From assembly GCA_964436255.1 (NCBI GenBank), contig CAYTBW010000005.1, forward strand, positions 6,374 through 70,373: a stretch of 64,000 nucleotides of DNA, read 5' to 3'. This stretch comes from an uncultured Candidatus Saccharibacteria bacterium. Its GTDB lineage: Bacteria; Patescibacteriota; Saccharimonadia; CAILAD01; JADZBC01. Under the pieces are notes generated by a model, which saw only the letters and a list, made by a program, of their open reading frames with translations, made no database searches and was not told the origin of the DNA. Shown here piece by piece: positions 26,179 through 42,140 of this stretch (its first letter is position 1; the number at the start of each line of letters is the position of its first letter). The position numbers and the translations under genes are program-made.

Positions 26179-27090
26179 TTAGCTATTATCCGAATGGAAC
26201 TTTTTATGCACGTCCTTCAGGTGCGGGTCGGTAATGTGGGTGTAAACTTGTGTTGTCGAGATGTTGGAATGTCCCAGCAGACCCTGCACGCTACGGATGT
26301 CAGCACCGTTCATAAGTAGGTCCGTGGCAAAGCTATGCCGCAGCGTGTGTGGCGTAACGTGCTTGGTTATGCCAGCTAGCTTGCTGTACTTTTCAACAAT
26401 ACGCTGAATGCTGCGAGTGGTAAGTCGGGTGTATTCGCCGCCTTCGAGCTCGCTTTTGCTACCACTAAAGTGGATAAAGAGAGGGTCGAAGTCGTCTTTT
26501 CGACCCTGCAGGTAATCTGCCAAGATTTGTGTTGCCGAATCGCTCAGGTACACCGGCCGATCTTTTTGGCCTTTACCACGCACACTGAACTCACCACGTT
26601 CTAAGTTAATGCTGTCGCGATTGAGCGCCACCAACTCGGATACACGCAGCCCGGTAGAGAACAGGAGGGCCAGGATGGCACGATCGCGCTTACCAGTTTG
26701 CGTATCAGGCTTCACGGCCTCCATGAGCCTGTGAACTTCGTCTTTGTCCAGGAAGCTTACTTGTGGCCGTTTCGCCACCGCAAGCTCTATCTTGTCAGGG
26801 CTGAGGCTGGTTATGTCACGCTTAACCAAGTAGCGTAGGAAGCTACGCATAGCAATTAGGTGGTAGTTTTGCGTAGTGCGGCTAATACTGCGCCCATCGT
26901 CGGTGACGTAGCGGTTTAGCCATTGGCGCCATTTGCTGATGGTGTCGAGGGTGATTTTATCTACCTTAATCTCACCTGTGAACTCGTCGAAGCGGTTTAG
27001 GTAATGCGAATAGTTCTCGATCGTCTTGAGGCTGCGCCCACGCTCGACCTCTAAGTATTCTAAAAAGTCACCCATGTAGTCGCTAAACAT
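26179..27090 (-). CDS. Tyrosine recombinase XerC/XerD family
   Basis: 303 aa; Xer-type motifs (R...HTLRHSFATDLLMNGADIRSVQGLLGHSNISTTQVYTH). Confidence 0.85.
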   Translation of the reverse strand: MFSDYMGDFLEYLEVERGRSLKTIENYSHYLNRFDEFTGEIKVDKITLDTISKWRQWLNRYVTDDGRSISRTTQNYHLIAMRSFLRYLVKRDITSLSPDKIELAVAKRPQVSFLDKDEVHRLMEAVKPDTQTGKRDRAILALLFSTGLRVSELVALNRDSINLERGEFSVRGKGQKDRPVYLSDSATQILADYLQGRKDDFDPLFIHFSGSKSELEGGEYTRLTTRSIQRIVEKYSKLAGITKHVTPHTLRHSFATDLLMNGADIRSVQGLLGHSNISTTQVYTHITDPHLKDVHKKFHSDNS

Positions 27091-29749: not shown

Positions 29750-30002
29750 CACGCCAGCTTCCTGGCTCACCTAGCGGTGTTCTGCCCTCAGCCTGATCGC
29801 GTTTGGCCTTGTACTCCGCGGCACCATCGAGCCCTGCCTTGGTCAGGGCATCACCGAAGTCGTATCGGCTTGGTGGTACGCGTCCTTCACGAACGGCCCT
29901 GGTCTTTGCTCTGGCTCGCTCGATCTTGCCGGGAGCCGAGCAGATCAGATCCCACCACGCTTGCGTAAAGTTCGGGTCTTTGCCTGGGTATGGCTGTGTC
30001 AT
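29739..30002 (-). CDS. 87-aa basic soluble protein, 3rd gene of coupled operon
   Basis: ATGA stop/start overlap with upstream gene; MTQPYPGKDPNF...; true start inside longer track ORF 29739..30119. Confidence 0.5.
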   Translation of the reverse strand: MTQPYPGKDPNFTQAWWDLICSAPGKIERARAKTRAVREGRVPPSRYDFGDALTKAGLDGAAEYKAKRDQAEGRTPLGEPGSWRDEA

Positions 30003-30139
30003 CGGTGCCTCGTTGCACTTGGGTTCATGACCGCATCCCATCCGTGGACCAGGGCCCACCCGGCTGCCTTGACCGAGGTGATGCCGATGGCAGCACCCAG
30101 GCCAATTGCTCCGACGCACTTCAGTCCGTTGCGGATCAT
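29999..30139 (-). CDS. 46-aa single-TM peptide with GxxxG motifs, 2nd gene of coupled operon
   Basis: GAGGAGG RBS 5 nt upstream of ATG, ATGA overlap with upstream stop; MIRNGLKCVGAIGLGAAIGITSVKAAGWALV. Confidence 0.55.
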   Translation of the reverse strand: MIRNGLKCVGAIGLGAAIGITSVKAAGWALVHGWDAVMNPSATRHR

Positions 30140-30399
30140 CGGTTCCTCCTCAGCGGACGAGTGATGAGCCACGTCAGGCCGACCGGGGTGAGCACGAAGG
30201 CAGCCCCGAGCACCTGGTCCAGGAAGTGAGGCCCTCCCTGGTACTTGACCTCCTTTGGCCGTGCCGCTTCGGCGTGCTTGCGCTTGCTCGCCAGCGCCAA
30301 GCTGACTGCGCCCGCTGCGGCCGTGAGACCGAGCGAGACTGCCGTTCCAACTGCTTTCAACGTTCCCCCTAGTGGTTCTTGCTCGTGCGCGGATCGCAC
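30136..30399 (-). CDS. 87-aa two-TM membrane protein, 1st gene of coupled operon
   Basis: GTG start; two hydrophobic helices; preceded by AT-rich promoter-like region (TTGAGA-17-AATAAT) and upstream terminator. Confidence 0.5.
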   Translation of the reverse strand: MRSAHEQEPLGGTLKAVGTAVSLGLTAAAGAVSLALASKRKHAEAARPKEVKYQGGPHFLDQVLGAAFVLTPVGLTWLITRPLRRNR

Positions 30400-30530
30400 T
30401 ATGCATGGAGGGTATTATTAAATGAACACGCAAATATCTCAAGCTTAAGTATAAAGTAAACGAAAAAACGACCTAGATATTTCTAAGTCGTTCTGGGGTG
30501 GGCCCTGCGCCACACCCCGCCGCCTGCCGG

Positions 30531-30758
30531 CTAGTGGCCGCAAGCGATGACGCCGTTGGCGTACTGGATGCAGGTCACGACCGTGTCGTGGTGTTGGCTT
30601 CGCTTTACGGCCTCTTTGATGAGGGCCACCACGAGTGTGCCAAGCCAGATGCCGATGATCATGCCGCCGATGCGAGCGAGGCTGATCTCGCCAGACTCTC
30701 CAGCTCGGGTACGACTAGCAGGTGACTTCGCGCCTTGATAGTGCGAAAAAGCTTTCAT
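30531..30758 (-). CDS. 75-aa single-TM protein with Cys-containing C-terminal tail
   Basis: Strong RBS AAGGAGAGG 8 nt before ATG (MKAFSHYQGAK...); terminator hairpin AACGACCTAGA-tat-TTCTAAGTCGTT + T-run downstream (30462-30495). Confidence 0.6.
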   Translation of the reverse strand: MKAFSHYQGAKSPASRTRAGESGEISLARIGGMIIGIWLGTLVVALIKEAVKRSQHHDTVVTCIQYANGVIACGH

Positions 30759-30787
30759 CTCATACCTCTCCTTAGTGAGCGGGCGAA

Positions 30788-30973
30788 TTATCCGTTGATG
30801 AAGTTGATGACGCCGATCGTCACGAACACGGCGAAGGCCAGGAAGAAGATCGCCGTGTAGATGTTGCTGACCTCTACTTCTTCCGGGTGGCCCTTTTTGC
30901 TCTTTCTCCGGAACTCGTACATCCAACCGAACCGGGCCGGGTACTTATAGGTACCCCATTTTGCTTTGGCCAT
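30788..30973 (-). CDS. 61-aa membrane peptide (C-terminal TM)
   Basis: RBS GAGGAGG 5 nt before ATG; MAKAKWGTYKYPARFGWMYEF...IFFLAFAVFVTIGVINFING. Confidence 0.6.
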   Translation of the reverse strand: MAKAKWGTYKYPARFGWMYEFRRKSKKGHPEEVEVSNIYTAIFFLAFAVFVTIGVINFING

Positions 30974-31088
30974 TCAGGCCTCCTCAGTGTTTGGGGCGCC
31001 ATAGGCACCATGTGCAGGAACTTGTGTATTTATAGCATGAAATTAAGATGATTACAAGGGCTAGTATGTTATCTCTACGAGACTTTAA

Positions 31089-31136
31089 TTATCACCTAAA
31101 CTCACAATGCTGGATTATGAACTTGGGTAATGCCAG
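31089..31136. repeat. Junction repeat R3, copy 1 (TTATCACCTAAACTCACAATGCTGGATTATGAACTTGGGTAATGCCAG)
   Basis: ~90% identical to 33365..33413. Confidence 0.8.
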
Positions 31137-31181
31137 GTCTCGACTGGCAACGCTGCACATTGATGCGTGCAGGACATGGGT

Positions 31182-31619
31182 TCAGCTATCAGCCGAAGTC
31201 GATTCCTCGTCAGAGGTCTTTCCTCCGGTCTTCTTCATCTCCAGTAGGGTCCTAAAGATCATGTAGCCGACGAAGAGAATCGCGATGAAGATCATGCGGA
31301 GCAGTACGACTGCTTCGTGCATGTCCTTTACCTCGACCGGTGGTGGTGCCGGTGTCACCGGCTGCAGCCAAGAGGAGCTGCTCGCAGGCGGGCAGGGCTT
31401 CCACTGTTCGGTGCCGGGCACCGGCCCTCGTGGGTCACCTGGTAGCTCGGTCGGGACTAGGGCCTTGGGCACGCATTCTGACTTGGTTGGCGGCGCGGTC
31501 GTCGTGAAGGCCTGTGTCGTTGTTGTCGACGGGGAGCCTTCGCTTGACGCCGCAGAAGCGGGTGAGCCGATCGATGCTCCGAAGAGAATGATCAGCATTA
31601 GAATCAAGATACGCCTCAC
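31182..31619 (-). CDS. Secreted Pro/Thr-rich protein with C-terminal membrane anchor
   Basis: 145 aa; GTG start 9 nt after AAGGAGG RBS; signal peptide MRRILILMLIILFGASIGSPASA, TTTT/PPP-rich linker, C-terminal TM + charged tail. Confidence 0.65.
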   Translation of the reverse strand: MRRILILMLIILFGASIGSPASAASSEGSPSTTTTQAFTTTAPPTKSECVPKALVPTELPGDPRGPVPGTEQWKPCPPASSSSWLQPVTPAPPPVEVKDMHEAVVLLRMIFIAILFVGYMIFRTLLEMKKTGGKTSDEESTSADS

Positions 31620-31623
31620 GGCG

Positions 31624-31716
31624 CCTCCTTAGGGTAGGGATGGGACAAGCTTGAAGAAGCTAGCACCCGAACGTTAGAACTAGACTATAATAGCATAAGT
31701 GTAATAAAAAGTCAAT
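31624..31716 (-). promoter_or_regulatory. Promoter/RBS cassette P1, copy 1 (TTGACT-17-TATTAT ... CCTAAGGAGG)
   Basis: Minus-strand -35 at 31710-31715, -10 at 31687-31692, RBS 31624-31631; near-identical copy at 40899..40975. Confidence 0.65.
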
Positions 31717-31746
31717 GGTACATCACGTGATTGAGATTTGGAAATC
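31717..31746. repeat. Junction repeat R4, copy 1 (GGTACATCACGTGATTGAGATTTGGAAATC)
   Basis: Matches 33336..33365, where it directly abuts R3. Confidence 0.75.
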
Positions 31747-31861
31747 TTACGAGCTCAGTTCGGCTCGTTATACGAAATGAGCCCCACGTTGCCGTGGGGC
31801 TCGAGATCAGCTTGCCCTGCTTGGTGTATCGAGGATCTCATTCACGATACGCAGTTGTTGC

Positions 31862-32482
31862 TCAGGCCTGAGCCTGCTCCTTGTCCTCGACCTGCACCAC
31901 CACGAGGGGCGGGCAGGCCTTGTTCCACCAGGCACTGAAGCGGAACTGCCGCTTCTTGTAGAGGACCCCGATGATCCAGCAGGCTCCGATGATCACCGCT
32001 ATCCCGAGGAAGTACGGCCAGGCGGCCTGCAAGAAGTTGCCGATCGCAAGGAAGGCTTCCCACAGCATGCCGTTGGAAAGCCCGGCCACGATGACGCCAA
32101 CGCCGACGAAGGGGAGTACGTAGTACCAGGGGTTGTGCTTCCGGTACTCGCCCGTGCGCGGGCTGTAGCCCTTCGGAAGGAGCATCTTGTCCGTCGGGAT
32201 GTGTGACGGCAGCTTGTCTTTCTTCTTCGTTGTCTCGGGGGTAGGTGTGTAGCCGAGGAACCATGCGATTGGCACGACCAGGATCCAGAAGAGGAGCATG
32301 ATGATGCCAAGGATCACTGACCCGATGGCCGAAGCCGGAATCATGATCCAGTAGAACTTGCAGGCCTTCGCTCCTTCGATCTTCTCGGGATCCTCCCAGA
32401 AGAAGTTGACGAACCGGTAGCGCCTGCTGTCGGTGGGGATGGTCGAGAGCCGCGTCTTGAGCTTGCTGATGGGGTGGGGCAC
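31862..32482 (-). CDS. Four-TM membrane protein
   Basis: 206 aa; GTG start with GAAAGGCGG RBS; transcribed from minus arm of bidirectional promoter P2a; stem-loop GAGCCCCACGTTGCCGTGGGGCTC downstream. Confidence 0.6.
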   Translation of the reverse strand: MPHPISKLKTRLSTIPTDSRRYRFVNFFWEDPEKIEGAKACKFYWIMIPASAIGSVILGIIMLLFWILVVPIAWFLGYTPTPETTKKKDKLPSHIPTDKMLLPKGYSPRTGEYRKHNPWYYVLPFVGVGVIVAGLSNGMLWEAFLAIGNFLQAAWPYFLGIAVIIGACWIIGVLYKKRQFRFSAWWNKACPPLVVVQVEDKEQAQA

Positions 32483-32536
32483 GATGCCGCCTTTCTTGGG
32501 TGCGTAGCTACCACGGGTTGTGGCGGCATGAACAAC

Positions 32537-32585
32537 GCATATAATACCACGAAACCTTTACAAAAGCAATAGATTATGGTAATAT
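32537..32585. promoter_or_regulatory. Bidirectional promoter cassette P2, copy a
   Basis: Plus TTTACA(32557)-17-TAATAT(32580); minus TTGCTT (comp. 32564-69)-17-TATTAT (comp. 32541-46); drives 31862..32482(-) and 32636..33067(+). Confidence 0.65.
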
Positions 32586-32635
32586 GTACCCCTGCTCTCA
32601 ACCGAAGCAGTTGAACATCACAGGAAGGGGCTACA

Positions 32636-33067
32636 ATGCCCGACGTGGAAGTGGATTATCCCGAAGGCATGCTCGACGACATCACCAACCGTCTCCGCTT
32701 CAAGCGGGACGTCAAGGGGGTGGTCGCGCGTGGCATGGACTGCATCAAGCCGCCCGAGGAAGGTGAGCCGGAGGTCATGACGCGGTACGCCGCCGATCCC
32801 GACGGCAACGTCGGCCTGCTGCTCCGTCCGTACAAGCCCGAGGACGGCAGCGACATCTGGACCCCCATCCAGGTCCGGATCAGCACCTACGCATGGCCCG
32901 ATCGCATGGCCAACCTCGATGACCGCATCTGGGACATCACCCAGGACGTGCGGCGCCTCCTCAACGTCGAGGTCGAGGAGTTCCTGGAGCGCATGTTCCC
33001 CGGCAAGACCAAGCTGGTGGCCGTTCGCTTCGACCCCAAGTTCCCCGGAGCCTGGGCCGAGGCCTGA
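32636..33067 (+). CDS. Acidic soluble protein, unknown function
   Basis: 143 aa; RBS AGGAAGGGG; high-GC codon usage; followed by hairpin + intrinsic terminator module. Confidence 0.6.
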   Translation: MPDVEVDYPEGMLDDITNRLRFKRDVKGVVARGMDCIKPPEEGEPEVMTRYAADPDGNVGLLLRPYKPEDGSDIWTPIQVRISTYAWPDRMANLDDRIWDITQDVRRLLNVEVEEFLERMFPGKTKLVAVRFDPKFPGAWAEA

Positions 33068-33089
33068 TGCTTCAAGGCCAACAAGAGGC

Positions 33090-33166
33090 GGGGTGTCTCT
33101 GGAGCCAAGAGGCTCACACCCCAAGCGCGGTTTGCACAGAAATGTGCGAGCCGCATTTTCATTTGT
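33090..33166 (+). terminator. Terminator module T1, copy a (bulged hairpin + 12-bp stem/GAAA loop/U-tract)
   Basis: GGGGTGT..GAGCC-aaga-GGCTC..ACACCCC then GCGGTTTGCACA-gaaa-TGTGCGAGCCGC-ATTTTCATTTGT. Confidence 0.7.
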
Positions 33167-33298
33167 ACCCATTAATCCCAGGAGGGTAGGTTGCTAGCGC
33201 AACCTCCGTGGCGTGCTTGGTCAAAGCGCAAGCGAACTTGCTTTTGACGCTGCGCGCGCCACTCCACCGAACCTGCGGTTCTCATCCGCCCTAAATAC

Positions 33299-33341
33299 AA
33301 AAGCCTGCTGACTACTAATGTAATCATCAGACTTTTGGTAC
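33299..33341. terminator. Bidirectional hairpin T2, copy a, plus 7-nt copy of tRNA-Arg 3' end
   Basis: AAAAGCCTGCTGA-ctactaatgtaa-TCATCAGACTTTTGG-TACA; duplicate of tRNA-Arg 3' flank at 34426..34469. Confidence 0.65.
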
Positions 33342-33413
33342 ACCACGTAATTGAGATTTGGAACTTATCACCTAAACTCACAATACTTTGATTATGAACT
33401 TAGGTAATGCCAG
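33336..33413. repeat. Junction repeats R4+R3, copy 2 (contiguous)
   Basis: GGTACACCACGTAATTGAGATTTGGAAC|TTATCACCTAAACTCACAATACTTTGATTATGAACTTAGGTAATGCCAG. Confidence 0.8.
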
Positions 33414-33438
33414 TTTTGTGGGTCTGGCAACCATTTGC

Positions 33439-33750
33439 TCAGGCGTGCGAGCGCCTGGTTGGCTTTACTTTGTCAGCGACGCCGTCTGGTCCGTAGAAGA
33501 CCAGCTTACGAAGCCGGGGATGGAAGGTGAAGTTCTCGGCCTCCAGGAACTGCTCGAGAAGTTCGCGGGACATGCCCCGGACGACCAGCTCCTCCGTTCC
33601 TCCGTACATCAGCGCCCACGTCACCTGCATGAACTCAGGTGGCCTGAAGTCGACCACGAGCTTCCAGGGGTAGGTGTCGTCATCGGGCTCGTTGAACTGC
33701 CCGGTGAGGCTGATGAGCTTGATGCCTTCAATTGCTGGGTACTCGGGCAT
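33439..33750 (-). CDS. 103-aa soluble protein, unknown function
   Basis: Strong RBS AGGAGGG 6 nt before ATG; transcribed from minus arm of P2b; preferred over overlapping plus ORF 33388..33843. Confidence 0.6.
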   Translation of the reverse strand: MPEYPAIEGIKLISLTGQFNEPDDDTYPWKLVVDFRPPEFMQVTWALMYGGTEELVVRGMSRELLEQFLEAENFTFHPRLRKLVFYGPDGVADKVKPTRRSHA

Positions 33751-33803
33751 GGCAGCCCTCCTTGTTCAGGACGGGCTAGCCGTCATTACCAACATGAGAA
33801 CCC

Positions 33804-33852
33804 GCATATAATACCACTAAACCTTTACAAATGCAATACTTAGTGGTATGAT
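33804..33852. promoter_or_regulatory. Bidirectional promoter cassette P2, copy b
   Basis: Plus TTTACA(33824)-17-TATGAT(33847); minus TTGCAT-17-TATTAT; ~90% identical to copy a. Confidence 0.65.
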
Positions 33853-33876
33853 GTGGCATCACCCAGTGGTGAAAGA

Positions 33877-34302
33877 ATGACTTCCAGAAGCGATGAAAGG
33901 GTTCTTGAGATGGTTTCAGAAGCAGCTACCTTCCTTACCTCCTCGACGGAGGTGGGCCGGATCTACGGGCAGGGGATGGACGACGAGTGCATGTTCGACA
34001 CCCTCCCTCTGTTCGGGGGTGATCACGTGATCAACGTCCGGACGCGTGGGGCTGAGGCCCAGAGCATCATGATGCCGAGGCGTACCACGCTCCTGGTGCA
34101 GCTCTTCGAGAGGCCGGACACTCTCTGGCTGGCCTCAGTAGTGCGGATCAATGGCGAATGGATGATCATGTACTCGCCGGTCTCGCTCCCAGAAGTCCTG
34201 GACGGAAGGTCTGAGGCACCCGAACTTGCCGTCGTCACAGAGCGACAGCAGGCCGAGGGGGTCACGGACGAGATGGAGCATCGACTCCGACGAGATACGT
34301 GA
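33877..34302 (+). CDS. Acidic soluble protein, unknown function
   Basis: 141 aa from ATG 33877 (track GTG start 33853 lies inside the -10 element); followed by T1 copy b. Confidence 0.55.
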   Translation: MTSRSDERVLEMVSEAATFLTSSTEVGRIYGQGMDDECMFDTLPLFGGDHVINVRTRGAEAQSIMMPRRTTLLVQLFERPDTLWLASVVRINGEWMIMYSPVSLPEVLDGRSEAPELAVVTERQQAEGVTDEMEHRLRRDT

Positions 34303-34309
34303 GTGCGGC

Positions 34310-34386
34310 GGGGTGTCTCTGGAGCCACGAGGCTCACACCCCAATCGCGGTTTGCATAGAAATGTGCAGGCCGCATTTTCATTTGT
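34310..34386 (+). terminator. Terminator module T1, copy b
   Basis: Same structure as copy a; stem substitutions remain paired via G-U/compensatory changes (GCGGTTTGCATA-gaaa-TGTGCAGGCCGC). Confidence 0.7.
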
Positions 34387-34425
34387 GCTCAAAATATACC
34401 TACGGCTCTCATCCGCCCTAAATAC

Positions 34426-34465
34426 AAAAGCCTGCTGACTACTAATGTAATCATCAGGCTTTTGG
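34426..34465. terminator. Bidirectional hairpin T2, copy b (native tRNA-Arg terminator)
   Basis: AAAAGCCTGCTGA..TCATCAGGCTTTTGG immediately 3' of tRNA-Arg on minus strand. Confidence 0.7.
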
Positions 34466-34538
34466 TACCCTGGGAGGGAATCGAACCCCCGACGCTCTCC
34501 TTAGGACGGAGACGCTCTATCCACTGAGCTACCAGGGC
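34463..34538 (-). tRNA. tRNA-Arg (anticodon CCT)
   Basis: 76-nt cloverleaf read by hand: acceptor GCCCTGG/CCAGGGT, D-arm GCTC/GAGC, anticodon stem TCTCC/GGAGA with loop GTCCTAA, T-arm GGGGG-TTCGATT-CCCTC, encoded CCA. Confidence 0.8.
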
Positions 34539-34630
34539 GTATGCTTAACTCTGCTCACTCTACAACGCCAAGGCCCTCAGTGTAAGGGCGTTCGACGCTT
34601 GTTTTCAATCCTCGGCCTACGGCCTGGGCA

Positions 34631-34653
34631 CTGAGCTACCAGGTCGTGTGATG
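34631..34653. repeat. Partial duplicate of tRNA-Arg 5' half (CACTGAGCTACCAGGTCGTGTGATGC)
   Basis: 22/24-nt match to 34522..34544, ~110 bp outside the tRNA; att/pseudo-tRNA remnant. Confidence 0.6.
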
Positions 34654-34733
34654 CTCAGTTATAAAACTAGCAGTTTCGTGACTAATCTAACAGCGTGCAG
34701 AAGTTATTATACACTAGTTATTGTCATGGGGGA

Positions 34734-34762
34734 TTGACAGAAAAGCATAAGTGTTGTATTTT
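34734..34762 (+). promoter_or_regulatory. Sigma70-type promoter (TTGACA-17-TATTTT) for Zn-ribbon gene
   Basis: Consensus -35, 17-bp spacer containing the recurring AGCATAAGTGT motif, TAGGAGG RBS downstream. Confidence 0.55.
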
Positions 34763-34794
34763 TAGGGCGTCCGCAACCTACTTAGGAGGTAGAT

Positions 34795-35484
34795 ATGGAC
34801 TGCACTAATTGCGGTGCCGCGATCCCTCCTAAGGAGGAGGAATTTGCTGGTACCTGTTATGGCTGTGGGGAATCTCTTGGCTTCCAGCCGTTCGTGAGCG
34901 AGACAGATGAAGCCCTCGATCGCCTAGAACAGCGGGTGAGGGAGGCCCGATTCCACGAGTTGGCTGGAGCCGCAGAGGTGGCCGACGACATCGAGCTTGG
35001 TGATCCTGAAGAGGGCATCGACTTCGAGGCGAATCGTCGTTCGCTGGCTGAGACTCACGAGTTTTTCGCCCCCGTACTCCCGATCTTTGGGACCGAGGAA
35101 GATGCTCGTGCCTCTGCCAGCAGGCACCCAACAGCTCGAGACGGCCAAACGCCGACAAGGGCTGTCGCCTACGAATATTATCGGGTTACCGGTAATATAA
35201 GGGGCGCGCCGACGTCGTTCTGGGTCGAGGTCTCGAGTAACGCTAAGGGTGACACCTCGGCTCGTAGCAAGTACTGCCAGTACGTCTCCGAGCAAGGGTG
35301 GAAGCTGTTCGACCGCGAAGGCCGCTTTGAGTGGCCTGAGGACCCCGCGAAGCGACACCCGGCTAAGAGGAGGTCCCTGGATGTATCAGCTTCAACCCAC
35401 GATGAACCAGACGAGTACCTGTATCGGTTGACGAGTAATTCGCCCTTGGTGTTGGGCCGTCGGGAACGGACACAAGGCACATGA
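34795..35484 (+). CDS. Zn-ribbon (CxxC...CxxC) acidic protein, unknown function
   Basis: 229 aa; RBS TAGGAGG 6 nt upstream; N-terminal CTNCG...CYGCG; GC-rich codons; hairpin terminator 35494..35532. Confidence 0.65.
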   Translation: MDCTNCGAAIPPKEEEFAGTCYGCGESLGFQPFVSETDEALDRLEQRVREARFHELAGAAEVADDIELGDPEEGIDFEANRRSLAETHEFFAPVLPIFGTEEDARASASRHPTARDGQTPTRAVAYEYYRVTGNIRGAPTSFWVEVSSNAKGDTSARSKYCQYVSEQGWKLFDREGRFEWPEDPAKRHPAKRRSLDVSASTHDEPDEYLYRLTSNSPLVLGRRERTQGT

Positions 35485-35493
35485 AGGTGCCTG

Positions 35494-35532
35494 CCCGGTT
35501 TTCTCAAAGACGAGAAGACCGGGTTCCCTTTT
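35494..35532 (+). terminator. Rho-independent terminator
   Basis: CCCGGTTTTCT-caaagacg-AGAAGACCGGG-TTCCCTTTT. Confidence 0.6.
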
Positions 35533-35580
35533 ACACCGAGTATTTATATCTGGCAGAATTGCAGCATAAGCTGTTACAAT

Positions 35581-36153
35581 ATGCGCATGAGTGAACATAA
35601 TCATCGCGACAAAAGAGAGCTCGCCCGTAAGCGTAAATGCAGTGTGGCGCCGGGCCACGAGGGAGAAGTAGTCATTGCCGTTGTGCGCCAATTCGTCGTT
35701 GCCTTGCGCCGCCCGATCCTCTTTATTGGCACAGTTACCGTAATAGCGATGCTGCCCTGGGCGCTGGCGAGTAATTATGCGTCTGACTTTGTCGGCATGA
35801 CCGCGGGGCTTATGTGGATCACGTTTGGCATCCTTGCCCTGTACGGCTTCTGGCGCTGGGTAGGCTGGTATTACAGCGTGTATGTATTAACCAATAAGAG
35901 CCTCACGATTATCACGCAAAAGGGCTTCTTTAACCGCAAAGTATCAGACATGGAGCTTCATAATATCCAGAGCGTTAACTACCACATCGATGGTTTTAAT
36001 GCTGCGGTTTTTGGTTATGGCAACGTGCTAGTCCAGACCCTATCTGGTTCGGGGGACATGGAGTTGAAGTTCGTCCATAAGCCGGCAGTTTTGGCCAAGC
36101 AGATTACTGATGCCGTCCACCAATACGGTTCGACACCACCTGCTGCTTCGTGA
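35581..36153 (+). CDS. Membrane protein with bacterial PH (bPH_2/YdbT-like) domain
   Basis: 190 aa; two TM helices followed by bPH-like region; moderate GC like core genes. Confidence 0.5.
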   Translation: MRMSEHNHRDKRELARKRKCSVAPGHEGEVVIAVVRQFVVALRRPILFIGTVTVIAMLPWALASNYASDFVGMTAGLMWITFGILALYGFWRWVGWYYSVYVLTNKSLTIITQKGFFNRKVSDMELHNIQSVNYHIDGFNAAVFGYGNVLVQTLSGSGDMELKFVHKPAVLAKQITDAVHQYGSTPPAAS

Positions 36154-36181
36154 TACTATACGGGGTAAGTATTAGTAATTT

Positions 36182-37306
36182 ATGAGGGTGAAATCACGTT
36201 ATATGGCACAAGATCCAGACATTAAGCAGAACAAGAAGCCGGCTAAGCCTGCGGCCTCATCAACTAAAAAGTCAGCTCCGAAGAAGTCTGCGGGCAAAGC
36301 AGAGGTAAAGCCTGCAGCTAAGCCAGCAGAAGAGGCCAAAAAGCCTACCGGTGCCAAGCAGCAGAGCTTCCAGGAACGACTCAATAAGCTCGGAGTCAAG
36401 AACGGACCAAGCAAGAAGACCATTGGTTTGATTGTAGGTGCTGTTGTGGCTGCGATTGTAGTTATGATGATTGTGTTTGGCGTACTGATTTACAAATACA
36501 AGCAGACGAACCGTGCTGTGCGCATCTTTGCCAGCGTGGTGCCATATCCAGTGTCGAGCGTGAATGGCAACGTAGTATGGAACACTACTAGCTACAAGGA
36601 TTATTTGTTCGAACTTGCAAGTGTAGAGAAGTTCTATAAGTCACAAGGTCAGGACTTAACTTCTGCAGATGGCAAAAAGAAGTTCGCACAACTTAAGCAA
36701 GACTTAATTAAGCAGCAGGAAGACAACATCCTCGTAGAGCAGTCTGCTAAGAAGTATAAGATTGTCGTGACCAAAAAGGACGTAGACACTGAATTCAACG
36801 AGCTGGTTAAGAATGCCGGCGGTATCGAAAAGGTCAAGACGACCCTAGACAAGCTCTATGGCTGGACGGTCGATGACTTCCGTGAAAAGGTGCGTCAGAG
36901 CATCGTGCAAAAGAAGCTCGGCGAGAAGATCGCGAGTGATCCAGCATTGAACGGCGGAGCAGAGAAGCAGGCCGAGGACATCCTCAAGCAGGTTCGCGAA
37001 GGCGGTGACTTTGCAGAGCTGGCCAAGAAGTATTCTCAGGACGGTAGTGCATCGAACGGCGGAGACCTCGGGTTCTTCGGCAAAGGTCAAATGGTGCCAG
37101 AATTCGAACAGGCAGCCTTTGCGCTCGAAAAGGATGCAGTAAGTGGTATCGTAAAGACCCAGTACGGCTACCATATCATCAAGGTCACGGATAAGAAGGA
37201 TGACCAGGTGAAGGCATCACACATCCTCATTAAGGGAACTGATGTGGAGACTTGGCTCAAGGCTCAGCGAACCAAGGCGAAGATTAAGCAGTACTTCCGA
37301 CCGTAG
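36182..37306 (+). CDS. Membrane-anchored parvulin-type peptidyl-prolyl isomerase (PrsA/SurA-like)
   Basis: 374 aa (start may be ATG 36205); Lys/Ala-rich N-terminus, TM, PpiC rotamase signature (DFAELAKKYSQDGSASNGGDLGFFGKGQMVPEFE...YGYHIIKV). Confidence 0.75.
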   Translation: MRVKSRYMAQDPDIKQNKKPAKPAASSTKKSAPKKSAGKAEVKPAAKPAEEAKKPTGAKQQSFQERLNKLGVKNGPSKKTIGLIVGAVVAAIVVMMIVFGVLIYKYKQTNRAVRIFASVVPYPVSSVNGNVVWNTTSYKDYLFELASVEKFYKSQGQDLTSADGKKKFAQLKQDLIKQQEDNILVEQSAKKYKIVVTKKDVDTEFNELVKNAGGIEKVKTTLDKLYGWTVDDFREKVRQSIVQKKLGEKIASDPALNGGAEKQAEDILKQVREGGDFAELAKKYSQDGSASNGGDLGFFGKGQMVPEFEQAAFALEKDAVSGIVKTQYGYHIIKVTDKKDDQVKASHILIKGTDVETWLKAQRTKAKIKQYFRP

Positions 37307-37323
37307 GTTTTAATCTAGCTCAT

Positions 37324-37354
37324 AAAACTCCTGGGCACACCCAGGAGTTTTTAG
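37324..37354 (+). terminator. Rho-independent terminator after PPIase gene
   Basis: AAAACTCCTGGG-tgcaca-CCCAGGAGTTTTT perfect 9-bp stem + U-tract. Confidence 0.75.
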
Positions 37355-37452
37355 TTATACGAAAATGATTACAAAAGGGTGCGCCGCTTCACCCGAGGGG
37401 AGTTTGTAACTCCTTCCTATGAGTGAAACGGCGGTGTGGTGGAGTAGCTGGG

Positions 37453-37707
37453 CTACTCGTTGCGCTTGTGCTGCCCGTGGGCCCGTGCGCGCTGGATGCA
37501 GTAACGCATCTCCCACTGGATCGGCCACAGCCAGTCACGACGCTTGCGCGGCTTCTGGATGTAGGGCTGATCCCAAGGTCCCAGGAGCCAGTAGATCACC
37601 CACATGACAGCAATCGCCGCCAAGATGAGGACCAACAGGCTTGTGGTGAGCGAGAGGTCCGCGTACCAATTTCCGATACCCTCGAGGGTATCTGTGAAAA
37701 CGCTCAA
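37453..37707 (-). CDS. 84-aa membrane protein
   Basis: TTG start, one TM helix (LLVLILAAIAVMWVIYWLL), basic C-terminus; weak RBS. Confidence 0.4.
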   Translation of the reverse strand: MSVFTDTLEGIGNWYADLSLTTSLLVLILAAIAVMWVIYWLLGPWDQPYIQKPRKRRDWLWPIQWEMRYCIQRARAHGQHKRNE

Positions 37708-37786
37708 TCTTTTCCCCTGATTCTGTTAGTGCGAGCGAGGAGAGAATCATAACAGATTCATGGCTGGTTCGCAATAGGATAAGCGT

Positions 37787-38179
37787 TCAGCCCGCGTCCC
37801 AGTAGCGAACGAAGGCTCCGCAGCTACCACAGTGAATATCGGCTTCGTGCCACATCATGCTGTAATTACGCATTTGGTGCGGTCCGGGGAAGCCACAGGC
37901 TTTGCAGCTGTTCGCAATCCTATGAGCTTCTTGGACTGGTCCAAGGTGCTCGGCGCAGTGGAGCGCACTCCCAACACCCGTGCCTTTGTTGTCACCGACT
38001 ATCTCCGCGTAGCAGTCGTGGCAGTAGCCGTAGACGGTCTTCCGGGGATCCTCCGTTGCATACATGAACGGGTAGTTCCCGTAGCCTCGGTGTACATGGG
38101 GGTCAGAATGGCCCTTCTCGCGTTCACATGTGAATTGAGCATTGTCGCCGATCGCAAAGTCACAGGTTTCTAGCTGCAT
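37787..38179 (-). CDS. Cys/His-rich putative metal-binding protein
   Basis: 130 aa; RBS TAGGAGAAT; multiple CxxC pairs (CHDC, CKAC, CGSC). Confidence 0.6.
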   Translation of the reverse strand: MQLETCDFAIGDNAQFTCEREKGHSDPHVHRGYGNYPFMYATEDPRKTVYGYCHDCYAEIVGDNKGTGVGSALHCAEHLGPVQEAHRIANSCKACGFPGPHQMRNYSMMWHEADIHCGSCGAFVRYWDAG

Positions 38180-38240
38180 CTGATTCTCCTAAGTTGTTAA
38201 GGTGCGTTTTCATTCTGCTCTTGTGACCACACGAGACATA

Positions 38241-38252
38241 GCAAAACGTTTT
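38241..38252. promoter_or_regulatory. 12-bp perfect palindrome CAAAACGTTTTG in divergent promoter region
   Basis: Centered between divergent genes 37787..38179(-) and 38285..38947(+); candidate operator for the adjacent wHTH protein. Confidence 0.35.
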
Positions 38253-38284
38253 GTACTGCTTGGCCTTGGGGTATACTTGGGCTT

Positions 38285-38947
38285 ATGCACTGGATTGAAC
38301 GCCACATACTCAAGCAACTCGCCTTTAACGACACAATGCGCTATAGCGAGCTCAAGCCCGATGCGGTAGAAGGTAATTTGTTTCAATACCACGCGCGGGT
38401 GCTAGAGAAGCAGAGTTTAATAAGTCGATCTGACGAGGGCTATAGCCTTACCGCCAAGGGTAAAGTATTCGTTGCCGATCTGAGCCAGATGAAGCAAATG
38501 GGCGTTCGTAAGTTGCCCCGTGCGGTCGTGATGATTGCGTGCAAGAATGACGCTGGGGAGTATTTGTTATTCAAGTGGCGCCGTCAACCGTACAGGGGGA
38601 TGGTGAGTCTACCGTTTGGCCGCCAGTTCTACGGTGAACCGCTCGACTGGGTGGTTAGCGAGCAGCTACGCTTAAAGACTGGTTATCAAGCTCAACTAGA
38701 GTTTATTGGCCAAGTGGACAGCATCACTTTGGATAAAGAGAGCGAGGCGGTTGATCATCTCGCGATTAGCGTATTCGAGGCTTCGGGGCTGACACGTGTC
38801 GAAACCCCCGACGGCTTAACAGGTGAAGCATTCTGGGCGCATCCGGGTATGCTGGACTCAGGCAACTGCCTGACCGGGTTTAGGGAGATTATTACGTGGC
38901 TAGGGGACCCCGGGCGAGCGCCGCTATTGAAGGTTTCGGGCTTGTAG
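38285..38947 (+). CDS. wHTH + Nudix-like domain protein (possible regulator)
   Basis: 220 aa; N-terminal winged-helix, C-terminal Nudix-fold-like segment with degenerate Nudix box (GRQFYGEPLDWVVSEQLRLKTGY). Confidence 0.45.
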   Translation: MHWIERHILKQLAFNDTMRYSELKPDAVEGNLFQYHARVLEKQSLISRSDEGYSLTAKGKVFVADLSQMKQMGVRKLPRAVVMIACKNDAGEYLLFKWRRQPYRGMVSLPFGRQFYGEPLDWVVSEQLRLKTGYQAQLEFIGQVDSITLDKESEAVDHLAISVFEASGLTRVETPDGLTGEAFWAHPGMLDSGNCLTGFREIITWLGDPGRAPLLKVSGL

Positions 38948-39075
38948 ATGAGCAGTGCTTCTAAATGGAGCTAGGTCAAGGGCAATGATCTGGGTTGACT
39001 ATTTTAAAGACAAACTGAAGGGGCCCGCCAAATCCTTTACACTTGTCGTGCTTAAGATATGGCGGGCCCCGGTGG

Positions 39076-39411
39076 TCACTTCGGAGGCCCGAACCTCCAC
39101 TCGCAGTGCAACCAGGCGGCTGTCTTGACCTCGAGTGAGAGGAGGGCTGCTCTGGCGACTTGGTATCCGGCAGGGGAGAGGTCGTACCTAGTAGCGCTCT
39201 CGCCCTTGAACTCGGTGACGATGCCGGCAGATACGCGTTTCTCGAGCAGTGGGTAAAGGGTTCCGTCTGCGACACCCGTTCGAGCCATGATCTCACGGGC
39301 GGTGATGGGCCTAACTGCTTCGATCAACGCTGCGTAGGTCTGGAGCGATTGCAGGCTCTCGTTGATGCGACGCGGCTTGCTTGGCAGCGCATCTGGTTCT
39401 TCTACGTCCAT
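39076..39411 (-). CDS. PadR-family transcriptional regulator
   Basis: 111 aa; RBS AAGGAAA; PadR winged-helix signature (ITAREIMARTGVADGTLYPLLEKRVSAGIVTEF...YDLSPAG). Confidence 0.6.
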   Translation of the reverse strand: MDVEEPDALPSKPRRINESLQSLQTYAALIEAVRPITAREIMARTGVADGTLYPLLEKRVSAGIVTEFKGESATRYDLSPAGYQVARAALLSLEVKTAAWLHCEWRFGPPK

Positions 39412-39472
39412 GCGGTTTCCTTATCCTCGATATACTTGGGTGGAGTCTCTTCTTCAAATTGCTGACGATTGG

Positions 39473-40027
39473 TCAAGCTGGCATAATCCCCGGGATACTC
39501 GTGTATGACACGTATTCGAACAGCTCGTTCCTGGTAAGGGAACTTGGGAATTGATCGAATCCAAGGATGGTGACCTTGATGTCCGATAGGGCAAGGATCT
39601 CCAGGATGGCATTGAATCGCTTGCCGTCGTTCGACGCCAAAACAATCTCGGCAACTCGATCTTGTCTGACGAAGTAGTCGATACATTCGACGATGTCTTC
39701 ATCGACATCGCTGTCTTCGGTGGTGCGCACTTTTGAATACACCCGATAGCCGAGCTTTTTCATAGTCATGACCCACCCGAGCTGCTTGAGGCTCGCATCT
39801 GGGTCGATTGGGCGGTTGACGAAGATCTTGGCGTAAAGCGTGCAGCCTTGCGCGGATGACTTCTCGCGTAGCCACTTCATCAGCATGTCCAGGCGCATGC
39901 GTTCGTTCGCTCTTGGGGCTCTTTCTCCCAGAGTCAAGCCGAAGCTTGCATCGACGTTTGGAGCATCCATTACGAATACAACGAGCTTTTTGCGTGTTGG
40001 CTTGCGGCGTTTCCTTGGTTCAGGCAA
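39473..40027 (-). CDS. NYN/LabA-like (PIN-fold) putative RNase
   Basis: 184 aa; TTG start; NYN motifs VVFVMDAPNV ... IVLASNDGKRF (lvSgDgDF-like). Confidence 0.55.
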   Translation of the reverse strand: MPEPRKRRKPTRKKLVVFVMDAPNVDASFGLTLGERAPRANERMRLDMLMKWLREKSSAQGCTLYAKIFVNRPIDPDASLKQLGWVMTMKKLGYRVYSKVRTTEDSDVDEDIVECIDYFVRQDRVAEIVLASNDGKRFNAILEILALSDIKVTILGFDQFPSSLTRNELFEYVSYTSIPGIMPA

Positions 40028-40136
40028 GGGCCGAACCTTTCATTTCAAGGAGCATATACTGCTCATGGATAGGAACAGCAAAATTATGACACTAAACACA
40101 GGAAACTACAACCACATTGTCTAGTAAATGAAGGGC

Positions 40137-40185
40137 CCCCGGCAGAGCTCCTTCTGGGTAGAAGGGTTGCCCTGCCGGGGGCGTA
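40137..40185 (-). terminator. Hairpin terminator after 40190..40756 gene
   Basis: CCCCCGGCAG-[loop with inner CCTTCT/AGAAGG hairpin]-CTGCCGGGGG. Confidence 0.5.
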
Positions 40186-40189
40186 GTTG

Positions 40190-40756
40190 TCATCGCTCGT
40201 CGAGCGGGTAGTTCCTCTCGTCGAGCGGGTCGTAGCGGCTCTCATCGAAGTCGTACCGGTCGAGGTCGGCCCGGTAGGCCGTCTCCGACCGGTAGGCATC
40301 GAAGGTGTCTTCGATGATCCCACGGATGGCCGCGATGGCCTCGTCCTCGCTGTCACACTTGATGACTTCGCGGTGGTTGCAGTACTGGTTGACCGTCCCC
40401 TTGACGCCGACGAGCAGCGCCTCGTTGTGGCCCAGCACATGCTTGTCGACACCGATGCCGCGGTCCCAGACGTCCATGAAGAGGCGGACGTTGATGGACG
40501 CTGGGTCGAGCGAGTAGCTCGACCTGAAGCGATCGGTGCAGCCACTTGGGCGCCAGTAGGCCTCACGGATGGCGTCAACCTTGCCCCAGGGGATGCGGTC
40601 GAACTCATCCGGCCACAGTTCCTGGGTGTAGATGAAGGTCGACCCGTTCGCTCGAGTGCCCTCCTGGTCGGCCCGGACGGAGGTTGCCGTCTCGAGCTTC
40701 TCGCGGATGACTCGCTCGAAGAGTGCGTAGGTGTTCGGGTCGATGTTGGTCTGCAT
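40190..40756 (-). CDS. 188-aa protein with acidic C-terminal repeats, unknown function
   Basis: ATG at 40756 with AAGGAGCAACACC RBS; overlapping track ORFs 40084..40950(-) and 40187..40972(+) judged spurious GC-rich frames. Confidence 0.6.
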   Translation of the reverse strand: MQTNIDPNTYALFERVIREKLETATSVRADQEGTRANGSTFIYTQELWPDEFDRIPWGKVDAIREAYWRPSGCTDRFRSSYSLDPASINVRLFMDVWDRGIGVDKHVLGHNEALLVGVKGTVNQYCNHREVIKCDSEDEAIAAIRGIIEDTFDAYRSETAYRADLDRYDFDESRYDPLDERNYPLDER

Positions 40757-40853
40757 GGTGTTGCTCCTTGCGAAGTAGGTACGGTTGCCCGTACCAGTTC
40801 GAAGGAACACACCCTGGTGTTCAGGTACGGGAGAGAAGGGTGGGGCCGTAGCC
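40757..40853 (-). promoter_or_regulatory. Leader with mutually exclusive hairpins (possible attenuator)
   Basis: CCCGTACC (1) / GGTACGGG (2) / CCGTACC (3): 1:2 and 2:3 pairings are alternative; between 14-aa leader ORF and main gene. Confidence 0.3.
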
Positions 40854-40898
40854 CTACGCTTGTCGCTCCTGTTCCCGAATGGTGTAACGGTACTTCAT
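40854..40898 (-). CDS. 14-aa leader peptide MKYRYTIREQERQA
   Basis: AAGGAGG RBS 7 nt upstream of ATG, directly after P1 promoter copy 2; not in ORF track. Confidence 0.35.
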   Translation of the reverse strand: MKYRYTIREQERQA

Positions 40899-40975
40899 GC
40901 CCCACCTCCTTAGGTAGACTTGAGGGACGTGATGAGGTGTATAATAGCATAAGTATAATAAAAAGTCAATAGCCC
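40899..40975 (-). promoter_or_regulatory. Promoter/RBS cassette P1, copy 2 (TTGACT-17-TATTAT ... CCTAAGGAGG)
   Basis: Minus -35 at comp. 40954-40959, -10 at comp. 40931-40936; near-identical to 31624..31716. Confidence 0.65.
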
Positions 40976-41034
40976 GGCATTCATACAAAGTAAAAACCCC
41001 ACTTATTGAGTGAGGCTCTTACTTTGGCGGGCCC

Positions 41035-41056
41035 GACCGTGGATTACTATAGGTAT
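41035..41056. repeat. Partial direct repeat of tRNA-Asp 3' end (TTGGCGGGCCCGACCG-T-GGATT)
   Basis: 16-nt exact match to comp. of tRNA-Asp 3' end at 41185..41200, ~130 bp away; att-site-like remnant. Confidence 0.65.
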
Positions 41057-41184
41057 AATTTCCTCACATGCTCGAAGCTAGGAGGTAGCTTCTGCGCGTG
41101 CTCGTCATTATCGAACCGCGGTAACGAATAGCGAGCTGGCGCTCACCCAAGAAAAAACACCGAGGCAAGCTCAGTGTCTTTTCT

Positions 41185-41261
41185 TGGCGGGCCCGACCGG
41201 ATTCGAACCGGCGATCTCCTCCGTGACAGGGAGGCATGTTAGGCCTCTACACCACGGGCCC
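41185..41261 (-). tRNA. tRNA-Asp (anticodon GTC)
   Basis: 77 nt; acceptor GGGCCCG/CGGGCCC, anticodon stem CCTCC/GGAGG with loop CTGTCAC, T-loop GGTTCGAATCC, encoded CCA. Confidence 0.8.
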
Positions 41262-41916: not shown

Positions 41917-42140
41917 TGACTGAACGACTGGCTGTAGCCAGGTGCACAGTCATATATGTACCAACCTTGGTAACTTAACAGGTTTGAGTTCCGTCAAAAT
42001 CAGACATCTTGCCTTGACATCGTGATAACGCGCGGTAAACCGAAGTGCGTAGCACTGTTTGTCAAGCGAAGAGGAGAATTTATGCCAAGGAGTGGAGCTC
42101 ATTGTCTGTTATGAGCGACTAAAAGGCATAAAATCGACGA

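Follow-up and report, generated by a model that had tools for sequence, protein, structure and literature searches.

Tandem recombinase-less cassettes at a tRNA-Arg gene of a Candidatus Saccharibacteria bacterium: a candidate insertion hotspot at the tRNA 3' end

Introduction

Saccharibacteria and other bacteria of the candidate phyla radiation (CPR) have tiny genomes and live on other bacteria. To our knowledge, gene gain and exchange in CPR bacteria are poorly understood, and few mobile elements have been described there. Several known systems can be compared with the locus considered here, which is the interval between ndk and the gene for tRNA-Arg(CCT) in a Candidatus Saccharibacteria contig. 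The cis-mobilizable elements (CIMEs), known from the accretion-mobilization of streptococcal integrative and conjugative or mobilizable elements (ICE/IME), are bounded by att-like ends, hold no recombination genes of their own, and lie in tandem with an autonomous element, the att sites being common to both partners. In the hyperplastic regions of T4-type phages, promoter/stem-loop units ('PeSL') are associated with modular shuffling. The tycheposon islands of the streamlined genome of Prochlorococcus lie beside tRNA genes, where newcomers push older elements inward, partial tRNA copies and degraded remnants are left behind, and both tyrosine and large serine recombinases are involved (bioRxiv 10.1101/2020.12.28.424599).

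The stretch of DNA analysed (the window) comprises 64,000 nt of contig CAYTBW010000005.1 (assembly GCA_964436255.1, positions 6,374–70,373, forward strand). All comparisons rest on assembled contigs, and loci from other assemblies are designated by L numbers. In the window, two small cassettes, E1 and E2, stand in tandem against the 3' end of tRNA-Arg(CCT). With moderate confidence, the ndk–tRNA-Arg(CCT) interval can be considered an insertion hotspot seeded by the tRNA 3' end, where small cassettes have accumulated by tandem accretion.

Architecture of the Cassettes

The cassettes, their modules, and the tRNA gene against which they stand are the following (window coordinates; no strand is assigned to the cassettes as a whole):

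31687–31721, minus strand: X block, a sigma-70-like promoter (TTGACT-17-TATTAT) of a minus-strand open reading frame (ORF) of 145 aa, then TGGTAC at 31716–31721, the distal junction Ja (promoter scan; homologue in L032)
31722–33341: cassette E1 (E1-like cassettes lie beside the tRNA in L021, L048, and L049)
31722–31743: Y block of E1, short
31862–32482, minus strand: 206-aa membrane ORF of E1
32536–32587, both strands: D3 of E1 (copy 1), a compact divergent promoter pair with a palindromic −10 region (repeat comparison, promoter scan)
32636–33067, plus strand: 143-aa ORF of E1
33087–33171, plus strand: D1 of E1 (copy 1), two hairpins (fold −43 kcal/mol, z −5.4)
33172–33341, plus strand: mini-element (~160 nt) of E1, ending in TGGTAC, junction Jb (covariance model R1, 133.8 bits; alignment with 7 copies from 6 other species)
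33342–34468: cassette E2 (the same E2 is found on L001 in another genomic background)
33342–33413: Y block of E2
33439–33750, minus strand: 103-aa ORF of E2
33803–33854, both strands: D3 of E2 (copy 2), 85% identical to copy 1
33877–34302, plus strand: 141-aa ORF of E2
34307–34391, plus strand: D1 of E2 (copy 2), 92% identical to copy 1
34398–34468, plus strand: truncated mini-element/D2 of E2, ending in TGGTAC fused to the tRNA (R1, 34.6 bits over 34383–34468)
34463–34468: junction Jc, the 3' end of tRNA-Arg(CCT), TGGTAC on the plus strand (ARAGORN, Rfam)
34463–34538, minus strand: tRNA-Arg(CCT) gene (ARAGORN; Rfam tRNA, 60 bits)
31089–31151, plus strand: additional, incomplete Y block (sub-blocks Yb and Yc), located downstream of the minus-strand 145-aa ORF

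E1 and E2 are arranged head to tail, and each follows the same module order: Y block, minus-strand ORF, divergent promoter, plus-strand ORF, D1, and a tail ending in TGGTAC. Their coding parts are unrelated, with no similarity between the ORFs of E1 (206 and 143 aa) and those of E2 (103 and 141 aa). None of these ORFs yielded a convincing Pfam, NCBIfam, or PADLOC family, only sub-threshold matches to MFS_1 and PD-T4-6, and the family of the 143-aa ORF consists of only 6 clusters among 5.8 billion proteins. As judged from sequence, the cassette ORFs appear to be lineage-specific orphans, and E1 and E2 would represent one family of small cassettes with a common non-coding scaffold, unrelated ORFs, and no recombinase.

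In D3 copy 2, the plus-strand promoter (TTTACA-17-TATGAT) was found by the promoter scan, and the minus-strand one (TTGCAT-17-TATTAT) was read by eye. The D3 module could double as an operator common to the divergent gene pair. The two −10 regions of the D3 copies form an inverted repeat (ATAATACCAC..GTGGTAT.AT). The second hairpin of D1 (33127–33154 in copy 1, followed by a T run) resembles an intrinsic terminator for the plus-strand ORF; the terminator stems at 33127–33154 and 34347–34374 show three differences, and the 12-bp stem is kept in both through G-U/A-U swaps. The hairpin of the tail (34425–34464) reaches −23.5 and −20.8 kcal/mol on the two strands, and is predicted to be usable as a bidirectional terminator.

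The original prediction for this DNA held that the terminator hairpin plus the last 7 nt of tRNA-Arg had been copied 1.1 kb away, in the manner of attL/attR duplicates. The copy is real and non-random: 34426–34468 recurs at 33299–33341, the two 43-nt copies differing at a single position, and two matches were never obtained in 100 dinucleotide-preserving shuffles. However, the duplication is larger than first noted, as it comprises D2 (33271–33341 vs. 34398–34468; 71 nt, 96% identity, BLAST E of 1e-22) and D1 (33087–33171 vs. 34307–34391; 85 nt, 92% identity, 2e-24), and only 6 tRNA nucleotides rather than 7 are common to both copies (TGGTAC, equal to GTACCA; 33342 is A, whereas 34469 is C). 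The attL/attR reading of the 43-nt repeat does not stand, the remainder beyond these 6 nt being the terminator and flank downstream of the tRNA, which both cassettes carry within a common tail of 160–250 nt, and the repeat corresponds to these right-hand tails of tandem cassettes E1 and E2. Further repeats in the array are TGGTAC plus the Y block (31716–31743 vs. 33336–33363), the 52-nt promoter block D3 (32536–32587 vs. 33803–33854), and the pair 31089–31151 vs. 33365–33431, none of which has another occurrence within the window.

Empty, Occupied, and Exchanged Sites in Relatives

An exact search located 44 nt of tRNA-Arg(CCT) in 18 GTDB species, mostly titled Saccharibacteria/Saccharimonadia (except four unclassified or 'Patescibacteria group' entries and one with a Nomurabacteria label). 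Over all 76 nt, the gene is invariant in 15 of these species, and the remaining three (L022, L029, and L035) each differ at one position. In the window, mnmG and ndk lie just upstream of the cassette interval, and the gene order xer, mnmG, ndk, variable DNA, tRNA-Arg, variable DNA, bPH, PPIase is kept wherever flanks are covered; of the 18 species loci, 15 show the tRNA–bPH(–PPIase) side, and 9 have ndk/mnmG on the opposite side. Between ndk and tRNA-Arg lie 0.6–2.2 kb in the other species and 4.9 kb in the window. Because the flanking gene order is fixed while this interval varies, the interval can be regarded as a plasticity zone.

An unoccupied site is present in L032, where the flank (−227 to −5) aligns to window positions 31494–31716, comprising the start and promoter of the 145-aa gene, and is directly followed by the tRNA. 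As the X block of L032 abuts the tRNA, 31717–34462 of the window is an insertion relative to L032, with TGGTAC on both sides (the hexamer starts at 31716, 33336, and 34463). The insert thus lies exactly at an intact tRNA gene and holds a partial tRNA copy at its far boundary, although this copy consists of 6 nt only. A further pair of relatives, L049 and L033, is 98.7% identical along 398 nt that comprise the tRNA and the flank to its right, while the left side carries an E1-like cassette in L049 and none in L033. A single E1-like cassette, 82% identical to E1, is found in L048, and L027 holds one 1.5-kb cassette with the same Y, D3, and D1 modules and other ORFs, flanked on both sides by the 12-nt direct repeat AAGTGCTGGTAC. 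Moreover, three different sequences adjoin the Y block on its left, namely the X promoter, the mini-element, and a promoter belonging to a 104-aa gene. All three lie directly against the 3' end of the tRNA in one or another of the other genomes, which argues that insertion took place repeatedly and exactly at that end.

Comparison with an empty tRNA-Arg locus had been proposed along with the original prediction, and L032, with its X block directly against the tRNA, provides it. The proposed repeated insertion at tRNA-Arg is borne out by this empty site, by L049 vs. L033, and by the ends of a large serine recombinase (LSR) element found at the junction in a sister genome (see below). As for the possibility of duplicates without inserted DNA between them, the copies in E1 and E2 are separated by ~1.0 kb of cassette DNA, but L020 holds two ~160-nt mini-elements in direct tandem.

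Exchanges of cassette content can also be traced. L006/L007 are 95% identical to the window, and only 33411–33792, the minus-strand ORF of E2, is replaced in them, with the left breakpoint where the Y block ends and the right one where D3 (copy 2) starts. In L001, the flank and the first Y nucleotides are of the L048 type, and from 33366 on the sequence is identical to E2 of the window, which places the crossover inside the Y block, between 33365 and 33381. E2 is identical in L001 and the window, while mnmG is only 76% identical. The use of L001 as proof of a very recent inter-species transfer was dropped when all 3 mismatches fell within 31 nt of the junction, raising the suspicion of a chimera. 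A k-mer chimera was judged improbable in turn: as L048 shows, the exact stretches in common measure just 18 and 15 nt, which would not suffice for a join at k = 31 (the value assumed for Logan). L001 is therefore more likely to be a real recombinant with its crossover inside the Y block, and is weighted as a single short contig.

The Mini-Element and Its Cognate tRNA Copies

The mini-element of E1 (33172–33341, 170 nt) starts with a decayed copy of the tRNA 3' end (33172–33190), and its last 71 nt correspond to D2. The R1 model finds it beside tRNA-Arg in seven other GTDB species (L019, L020 with two tandem copies, L024, L025, L030, L031, and L036), and strains close to the window likewise carry it there. 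In L020, L030, and L031 it opens with an exact 18-nt copy of the tRNA 3' end, TGGTACCCTGGGAGGGAA, which is preserved at 16 of 18 positions in L025 and decayed in the window, L024, and L036. This 18-nt copy has the features of a classical partial-tRNA repeat. The original prediction of an att signature was the right instinct applied to the wrong nucleotides, the partial-tRNA repeat being this other sequence (18 nt, from the T loop to CCA), which was overlooked because it is degenerate in the window. The tail of E2 lacks ~100 nt of the middle of the mini-element in the window, and is complete in the E2 of L040.

The helices of the mini-element covary: 88% of cells are paired vs. 39–56% in slid controls, double changes are present in 10 pairs, and the score was not attained by any of 500 shuffles, in an alignment that was fitted to the model and is hence biased towards structure. 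Of the two strands, the one antisense to the tRNA is favoured by G-U pairs and by fold z-scores (−3.9 vs. −2.0). Rfam searches of the window (gathering score; E ≤ 10) and of 11 related loci returned only tRNA matches and no family for the mini-element. The idea that the Y block or the mini-element is a degenerate fragment of tRNA, tmRNA, or RNase P found no support from ARAGORN and Rfam.

Similar arrangements are found at other tRNA genes. In L026 (6525–6685), from a sister genome, tRNA-Gly(CCC) is followed by a copy of the mini-element (61.5 bits) whose last 18 nt repeat the tRNA-Gly 3' end exactly and immediately precede tRNA-Thr; elsewhere, the spacer between tRNA-Gly(CCC) and tRNA-Thr consists of a different 224 nt (window, 41917–42140) or of 1 nt (L032). 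In the window, the 3' end of tRNA-Asp(GTC) is repeated exactly over 15 nt (TGGCGGGCCCGACCG) at a distance of 160 nt downstream (41025–41039 vs. 41185–41199), with the original terminator of the tRNA beyond the copy, and this copy measures 18–19 nt in L006, L028, and L031, with one mismatch in L028. The body adjacent to tRNA-Asp is not recognised by model R1, and its relation to the Arg and Gly elements consists of short shared motifs and weak similarity. A tRNA scan over all collected loci found 3' copies ending 140–160 nt downstream of tRNA-Arg, tRNA-Asp, and tRNA-Gly, and 5' copies starting 106–113 nt upstream, at tRNA-Arg only.

Because related bodies carry end-copies cognate to their own neighbouring tRNA, a classical element carrying attP and an integrase is an unlikely source. 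The cognate copies suggest either a target duplication on insertion or a small RNA (sRNA) whose 5' end is complementary to the 3' strand of the acceptor/T arm of the adjacent tRNA. We only tentatively propose that the mini-element may be a miniature element of a new kind, with a specificity for the 3' ends of tRNA genes; the association of such elements with cognate tRNA-end copies is the most novel lead at the locus.

Recombinases at and near the Junction

A sister metagenome-assembled genome (MAG), GCA_052034495.1, is 92–94% identical to the window. Its contig L040 passes through E1 and E2, the latter with the full-length tail, and then switches into new DNA (...CTTTTGGTA/GAGTTTTAC..., where the slash marks the junction). 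Another of its contigs, L008, starts with ...AAAGTTGCATTT/TGGTACCCTGGG and continues into the tRNA, a junction that reads ...GCATTT/TGGTACCC in short form. The contig ends of L040 and L008 correspond to the two termini of a 3.6-kb element present in L029 (84% over 49 nt and 78% over 136 nt). This element adjoins the tRNA-Arg(CCT) of L029 and encodes an LSR of ~490 aa with one frameshift and the domains Resolvase, Recombinase, and Zn_ribbon_recom. Homologues of this LSR with 87% and 80% identity abut tRNA-Met(CAT) and tRNA-Arg(TCT) in L050 and L051, with the same right end and the same TT/TGGTA junction. The LSR family, very abundant with 5719 hits at E ≤ 1e-30, is represented by the following loci:

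L029, oriented −3626 to 0: LSR gene reading into the 3' end of tRNA-Arg(CCT)
L050, 196–1809: LSR gene reading into the 3' end of tRNA-Met(CAT)
L051, 6001–7614: LSR gene reading into the 3' end of tRNA-Arg(TCT)

The LSR element of L029 also contains an ORF for an IS30-like transposase (HTH_38 and rve; L029 5378–6457). The candidate attB sequence is …CAGGCTTTTGGTACCCTGGG…, and the ends of E2, if joined, would read …CAGGCTTTTGGTAC/ACCACGTAATTGAG….

In the window itself, a recombinase of another type is encoded beyond mnmG and ndk:

26179–27090: XerA/XerC/XerD-like tyrosine recombinase (passes the archaeal XerA equivalog cut-off and falls below the XerC/XerD cut-offs)

This gene lies upstream of mnmG and divergent from it, directly in some loci and with a 215-aa ORF in between in L006/L007/L016, and is probably a housekeeping gene. 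Its candidacy as the cassette integrase was rejected on the basis of its synteny wherever the locus extends and its XerA/C/D scores, with nothing tying it to the cassettes.

A Model of Cassette Accretion and Its Alternatives

The proposed mechanism builds on what is observed at the locus, namely the repeats, their architecture, an insertion relative to an empty site, cassettes varying in presence and content, and LSR-element ends at the same junction. Incoming DNA would enter at the last nucleotides of the tRNA gene, with TGGTA/TGGTAC as the core, and the insert would supply replacement tRNA-end nucleotides together with a new terminator, so that older inserts would be shifted away from the tRNA and tandem accretion would result. 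The arrival of E1 and of E2 at the tRNA end was probably site-specific in each case, catalysed in trans by a putative enzyme, whereas the ORFs would have been shuffled later by homologous recombination between the conserved non-coding modules.

Several findings weigh against this mechanism. No recombinase was detected in E1, in E2, or between ndk and the tRNA by Pfam, NCBIfam, and PADLOC, nor an LSR anywhere in the window by tblastn; thus, neither cassette encodes its own enzyme, and a Resolvase, Recombinase, and zinc-ribbon protein beside the junction is seen in L029 and L050/L051 and not in the window. The sole recombinase of the neighbourhood is the Xer-like gene, which is syntenic wherever the locus reaches it (L024, L027, L006/L007, L016, and L040). 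Beyond the TTGGTA core, neither end of the LSR element resembles the Y block or the tail, and no known enzyme can therefore be linked to E1 and E2. The connection of L040 with L008 in the sister MAG is deduced from two contig ends, the middle of the element being unassembled there. Furthermore, all joints between TGGTAC and the Y block share 6 nt only and could stem from one or a few events that spread with the module, and the hexamer is TTGGAC instead of TGGTAC in L001/L048. Finally, the two recent exchanges that can be traced (L006/L007 and L001) are homologous rather than site-specific, because their breakpoints lie inside conserved non-coding modules.

These breakpoints, at the Y and D3 ends in L006/L007 and within Y (33365–33381) in L001, would also be expected if no site-specific step were involved at all, and DNA uptake were followed by RecA-type homologous and homology-facilitated illegitimate recombination, with the tRNA and the modules as anchors and TGGTAC as microhomology. 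The tRNA, identical or nearly so across species, would be a good anchor, and cassettes without a recombinase fit such a process. Illegitimate joins, however, are expected to scatter, whereas three left partners join Y exactly at the tRNA-end position; exact 15–19-nt tRNA-end repeats stand at fixed distances at three tRNAs, and a true site-specific element uses the same junction, all of which makes this explanation rather unlikely. Even less probable is a local tandem duplication of one cassette in which both ORFs of one copy were later replaced, which would leave the repeats uninformative on tRNA insertion. It would account for the same module order occurring twice with a scaffold identity of 85–96%, and the ~160-nt mini-element is indeed tandemly duplicated in L020, but the ORFs of E1 and E2 lack any similarity, E1-like and E2 cassettes occur singly at the same position in L021, L048, L049, and L001, and a join at the 6-nt motif would still be required.

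A different kind of alternative concerns D2 and the mini-element, which may have been kept as a functional RNA gene or regulatory module, for instance an sRNA antisense to the tRNA 3' end that shares the tRNA terminator, with selection for its duplication. The covariation of the helices, the strand bias of G-U pairs and fold z-scores towards the antisense strand, and the conservation of the mini-element beside tRNA-Arg in seven other GTDB species and in close strains would agree with such a role. Contrary to this, Rfam returned no match, the E2 copy is truncated, and the tRNA-complementary 18-mer appears dispensable, since it has decayed in the window, L024, and L036; moreover, the structure could equally serve at the DNA level. 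A functional RNA is thus a tentative suggestion, somewhat less doubtful than recombination by homology alone, and it is compatible with cassette accretion at the tRNA end. A last possibility is that the repeats are artefacts of assembly or arose by chance, given that numerous short contigs end within D2 and that assemblers struggle at the locus. Nevertheless, no shuffle gave as many matches as observed, and the same architecture is present in independent JGI, NCBI, ENA, and Logan assemblies, including contigs of 133 and 430 kb, by which this explanation is effectively refuted.

The 5' Side of the tRNA and the Wider Surroundings

According to the original prediction, the 5' half of the tRNA had been copied as well, over 22 nt and some 110 bp outside the gene. 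This copy is real, and it matches 34522–34543 at 20 of 22 positions with no shuffle giving two matches, but it lies at 34629–34650 and not at 34631–34653. Seventeen of its nucleotides correspond to tRNA positions 1–17 (16 of 17 identical), besides 5 flank nucleotides. It forms part of one further feature:

34539–34650, minus strand: 5'-side insert of ~90 nt (34539–34628), then the copy of tRNA positions 1–17 plus 5 flank nt (34629–34650), with the older upstream flank beyond

The 5' duplicate starts 106–113 nt upstream of the gene in L026, L033, L048, and L049, and the insert is absent from L021, whose flank is 94–95% identical to that of L033/L049. In a mirror image of the 3' side, the ~90-nt insert would have brought a new copy of tRNA positions 1–17 and displaced the old one. 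Beyond the displaced copy, an old −10-like box was read by eye, and tRNA-Arg may be transcribed with a ~110-nt leader, as we infer from this arrangement.

In other species, some ORFs of the ndk–tRNA-Arg interval resemble, by eye only, a methyltransferase, a NUDIX hydrolase, and a DUF1801-like protein. The short intervals of L020, L023, L030, and L024 hold a conserved, very basic minus-strand ORF of 62–76 aa (…VHSxQKVRFSQRRRSRHKHREHIARSRW…); no counterpart was noticed among the window ORFs, at which no dedicated search for this ORF was aimed.

The cassette DNA has a G+C content of 0.55–0.60, compared to 0.41–0.54 outside the region from 30 to 41 kb. This region (30000–41000) is an 11-kb block of raised G+C (0.54–0.60, save one 1-kb bin at 0.49; 0.41–0.54 in the rest of the window), which covers the cassette array and variable genes on both sides of tRNA-Arg. 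Downstream of tRNA-Asp, window positions 39097–41145 differ from the 93–97% identical relatives L006, L008, and L010, representing a second plasticity zone at a tRNA 3' end.

Pattern scans of a phage DNA collection and of IMG/VR with the Y block, the D3 promoter, and the tRNA returned nothing, and hence no sign of a phage origin. The sole match of a JGI metagenome scan with the Y block, L037, was rejected: it shows no similarity beyond the 20-nt pattern and is likely a chance match inside an unrelated gene.

Significance and Relation to Known Systems

The locus represents a concrete route of gene exchange, in which a tRNA end serves as the repeated landing site for tiny orphan-gene cassettes that are equipped with promoters and terminators and vary between relatives. 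In addition, three tRNA genes with this TGGTA end are abutted by members of an abundant LSR family. Should the cassettes be mobilised in trans, few known integrative units that carry cargo would be as small, and the orphan genes of the cassettes are suggested as candidates for strain-specific functions.

Like integrons, the locus consists of an array of small cassettes, mostly with orphan genes, and conserved structured boundaries. Contrary to integrons, there is no IntI beside an attI and there are no attC-type R''/R' motifs, each cassette has its own promoters, and the array is anchored at a tRNA gene; the Xer-like recombinase scores far below the integron integrase cut-offs and lies 2.5 kb from the array, beyond mnmG and ndk. 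The resemblance to PeSL shuffling lies in unrelated small ORFs standing between conserved promoter/terminator modules, with exchange breakpoints in those modules. However, the locus belongs to a bacterial chromosome and is anchored at a tRNA gene rather than being part of a phage genome, and its cassettes hold divergent gene pairs.

As in LSR integrative elements, the junctions show a short core without a long identity block, and the attB lies at the end of a conserved gene, although the window and its cassettes lack an LSR gene. Similarly, E1 and E2 recall CIMEs by being bounded by att-like ends, by having no recombination genes of their own, and by using a site that is also used by an autonomous element. 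Unlike CIMEs, however, their att sites do not match those of that element, the LSR-element ends (tail of L040, start of L008, and L029) sharing only TTGGTA with the Y block and the tail.

The likeness to tycheposon islands shows in the window and its relatives, among which the site is seen empty, occupied once, or occupied twice, and in which an LSR element stands at this junction. In contrast to tycheposons, the window cassettes measure only 1.1–1.6 kb, carry no integrase or replication genes, and have 6 nt in common with the tRNA, while their conserved parts are promoters and terminators instead of integration and replication modules. Thus, islands seeded by tRNA genes are a kind of event already known, and what is unusual here is that very small, scaffold-sharing, integrase-less cassettes are involved, in a CPR bacterium.

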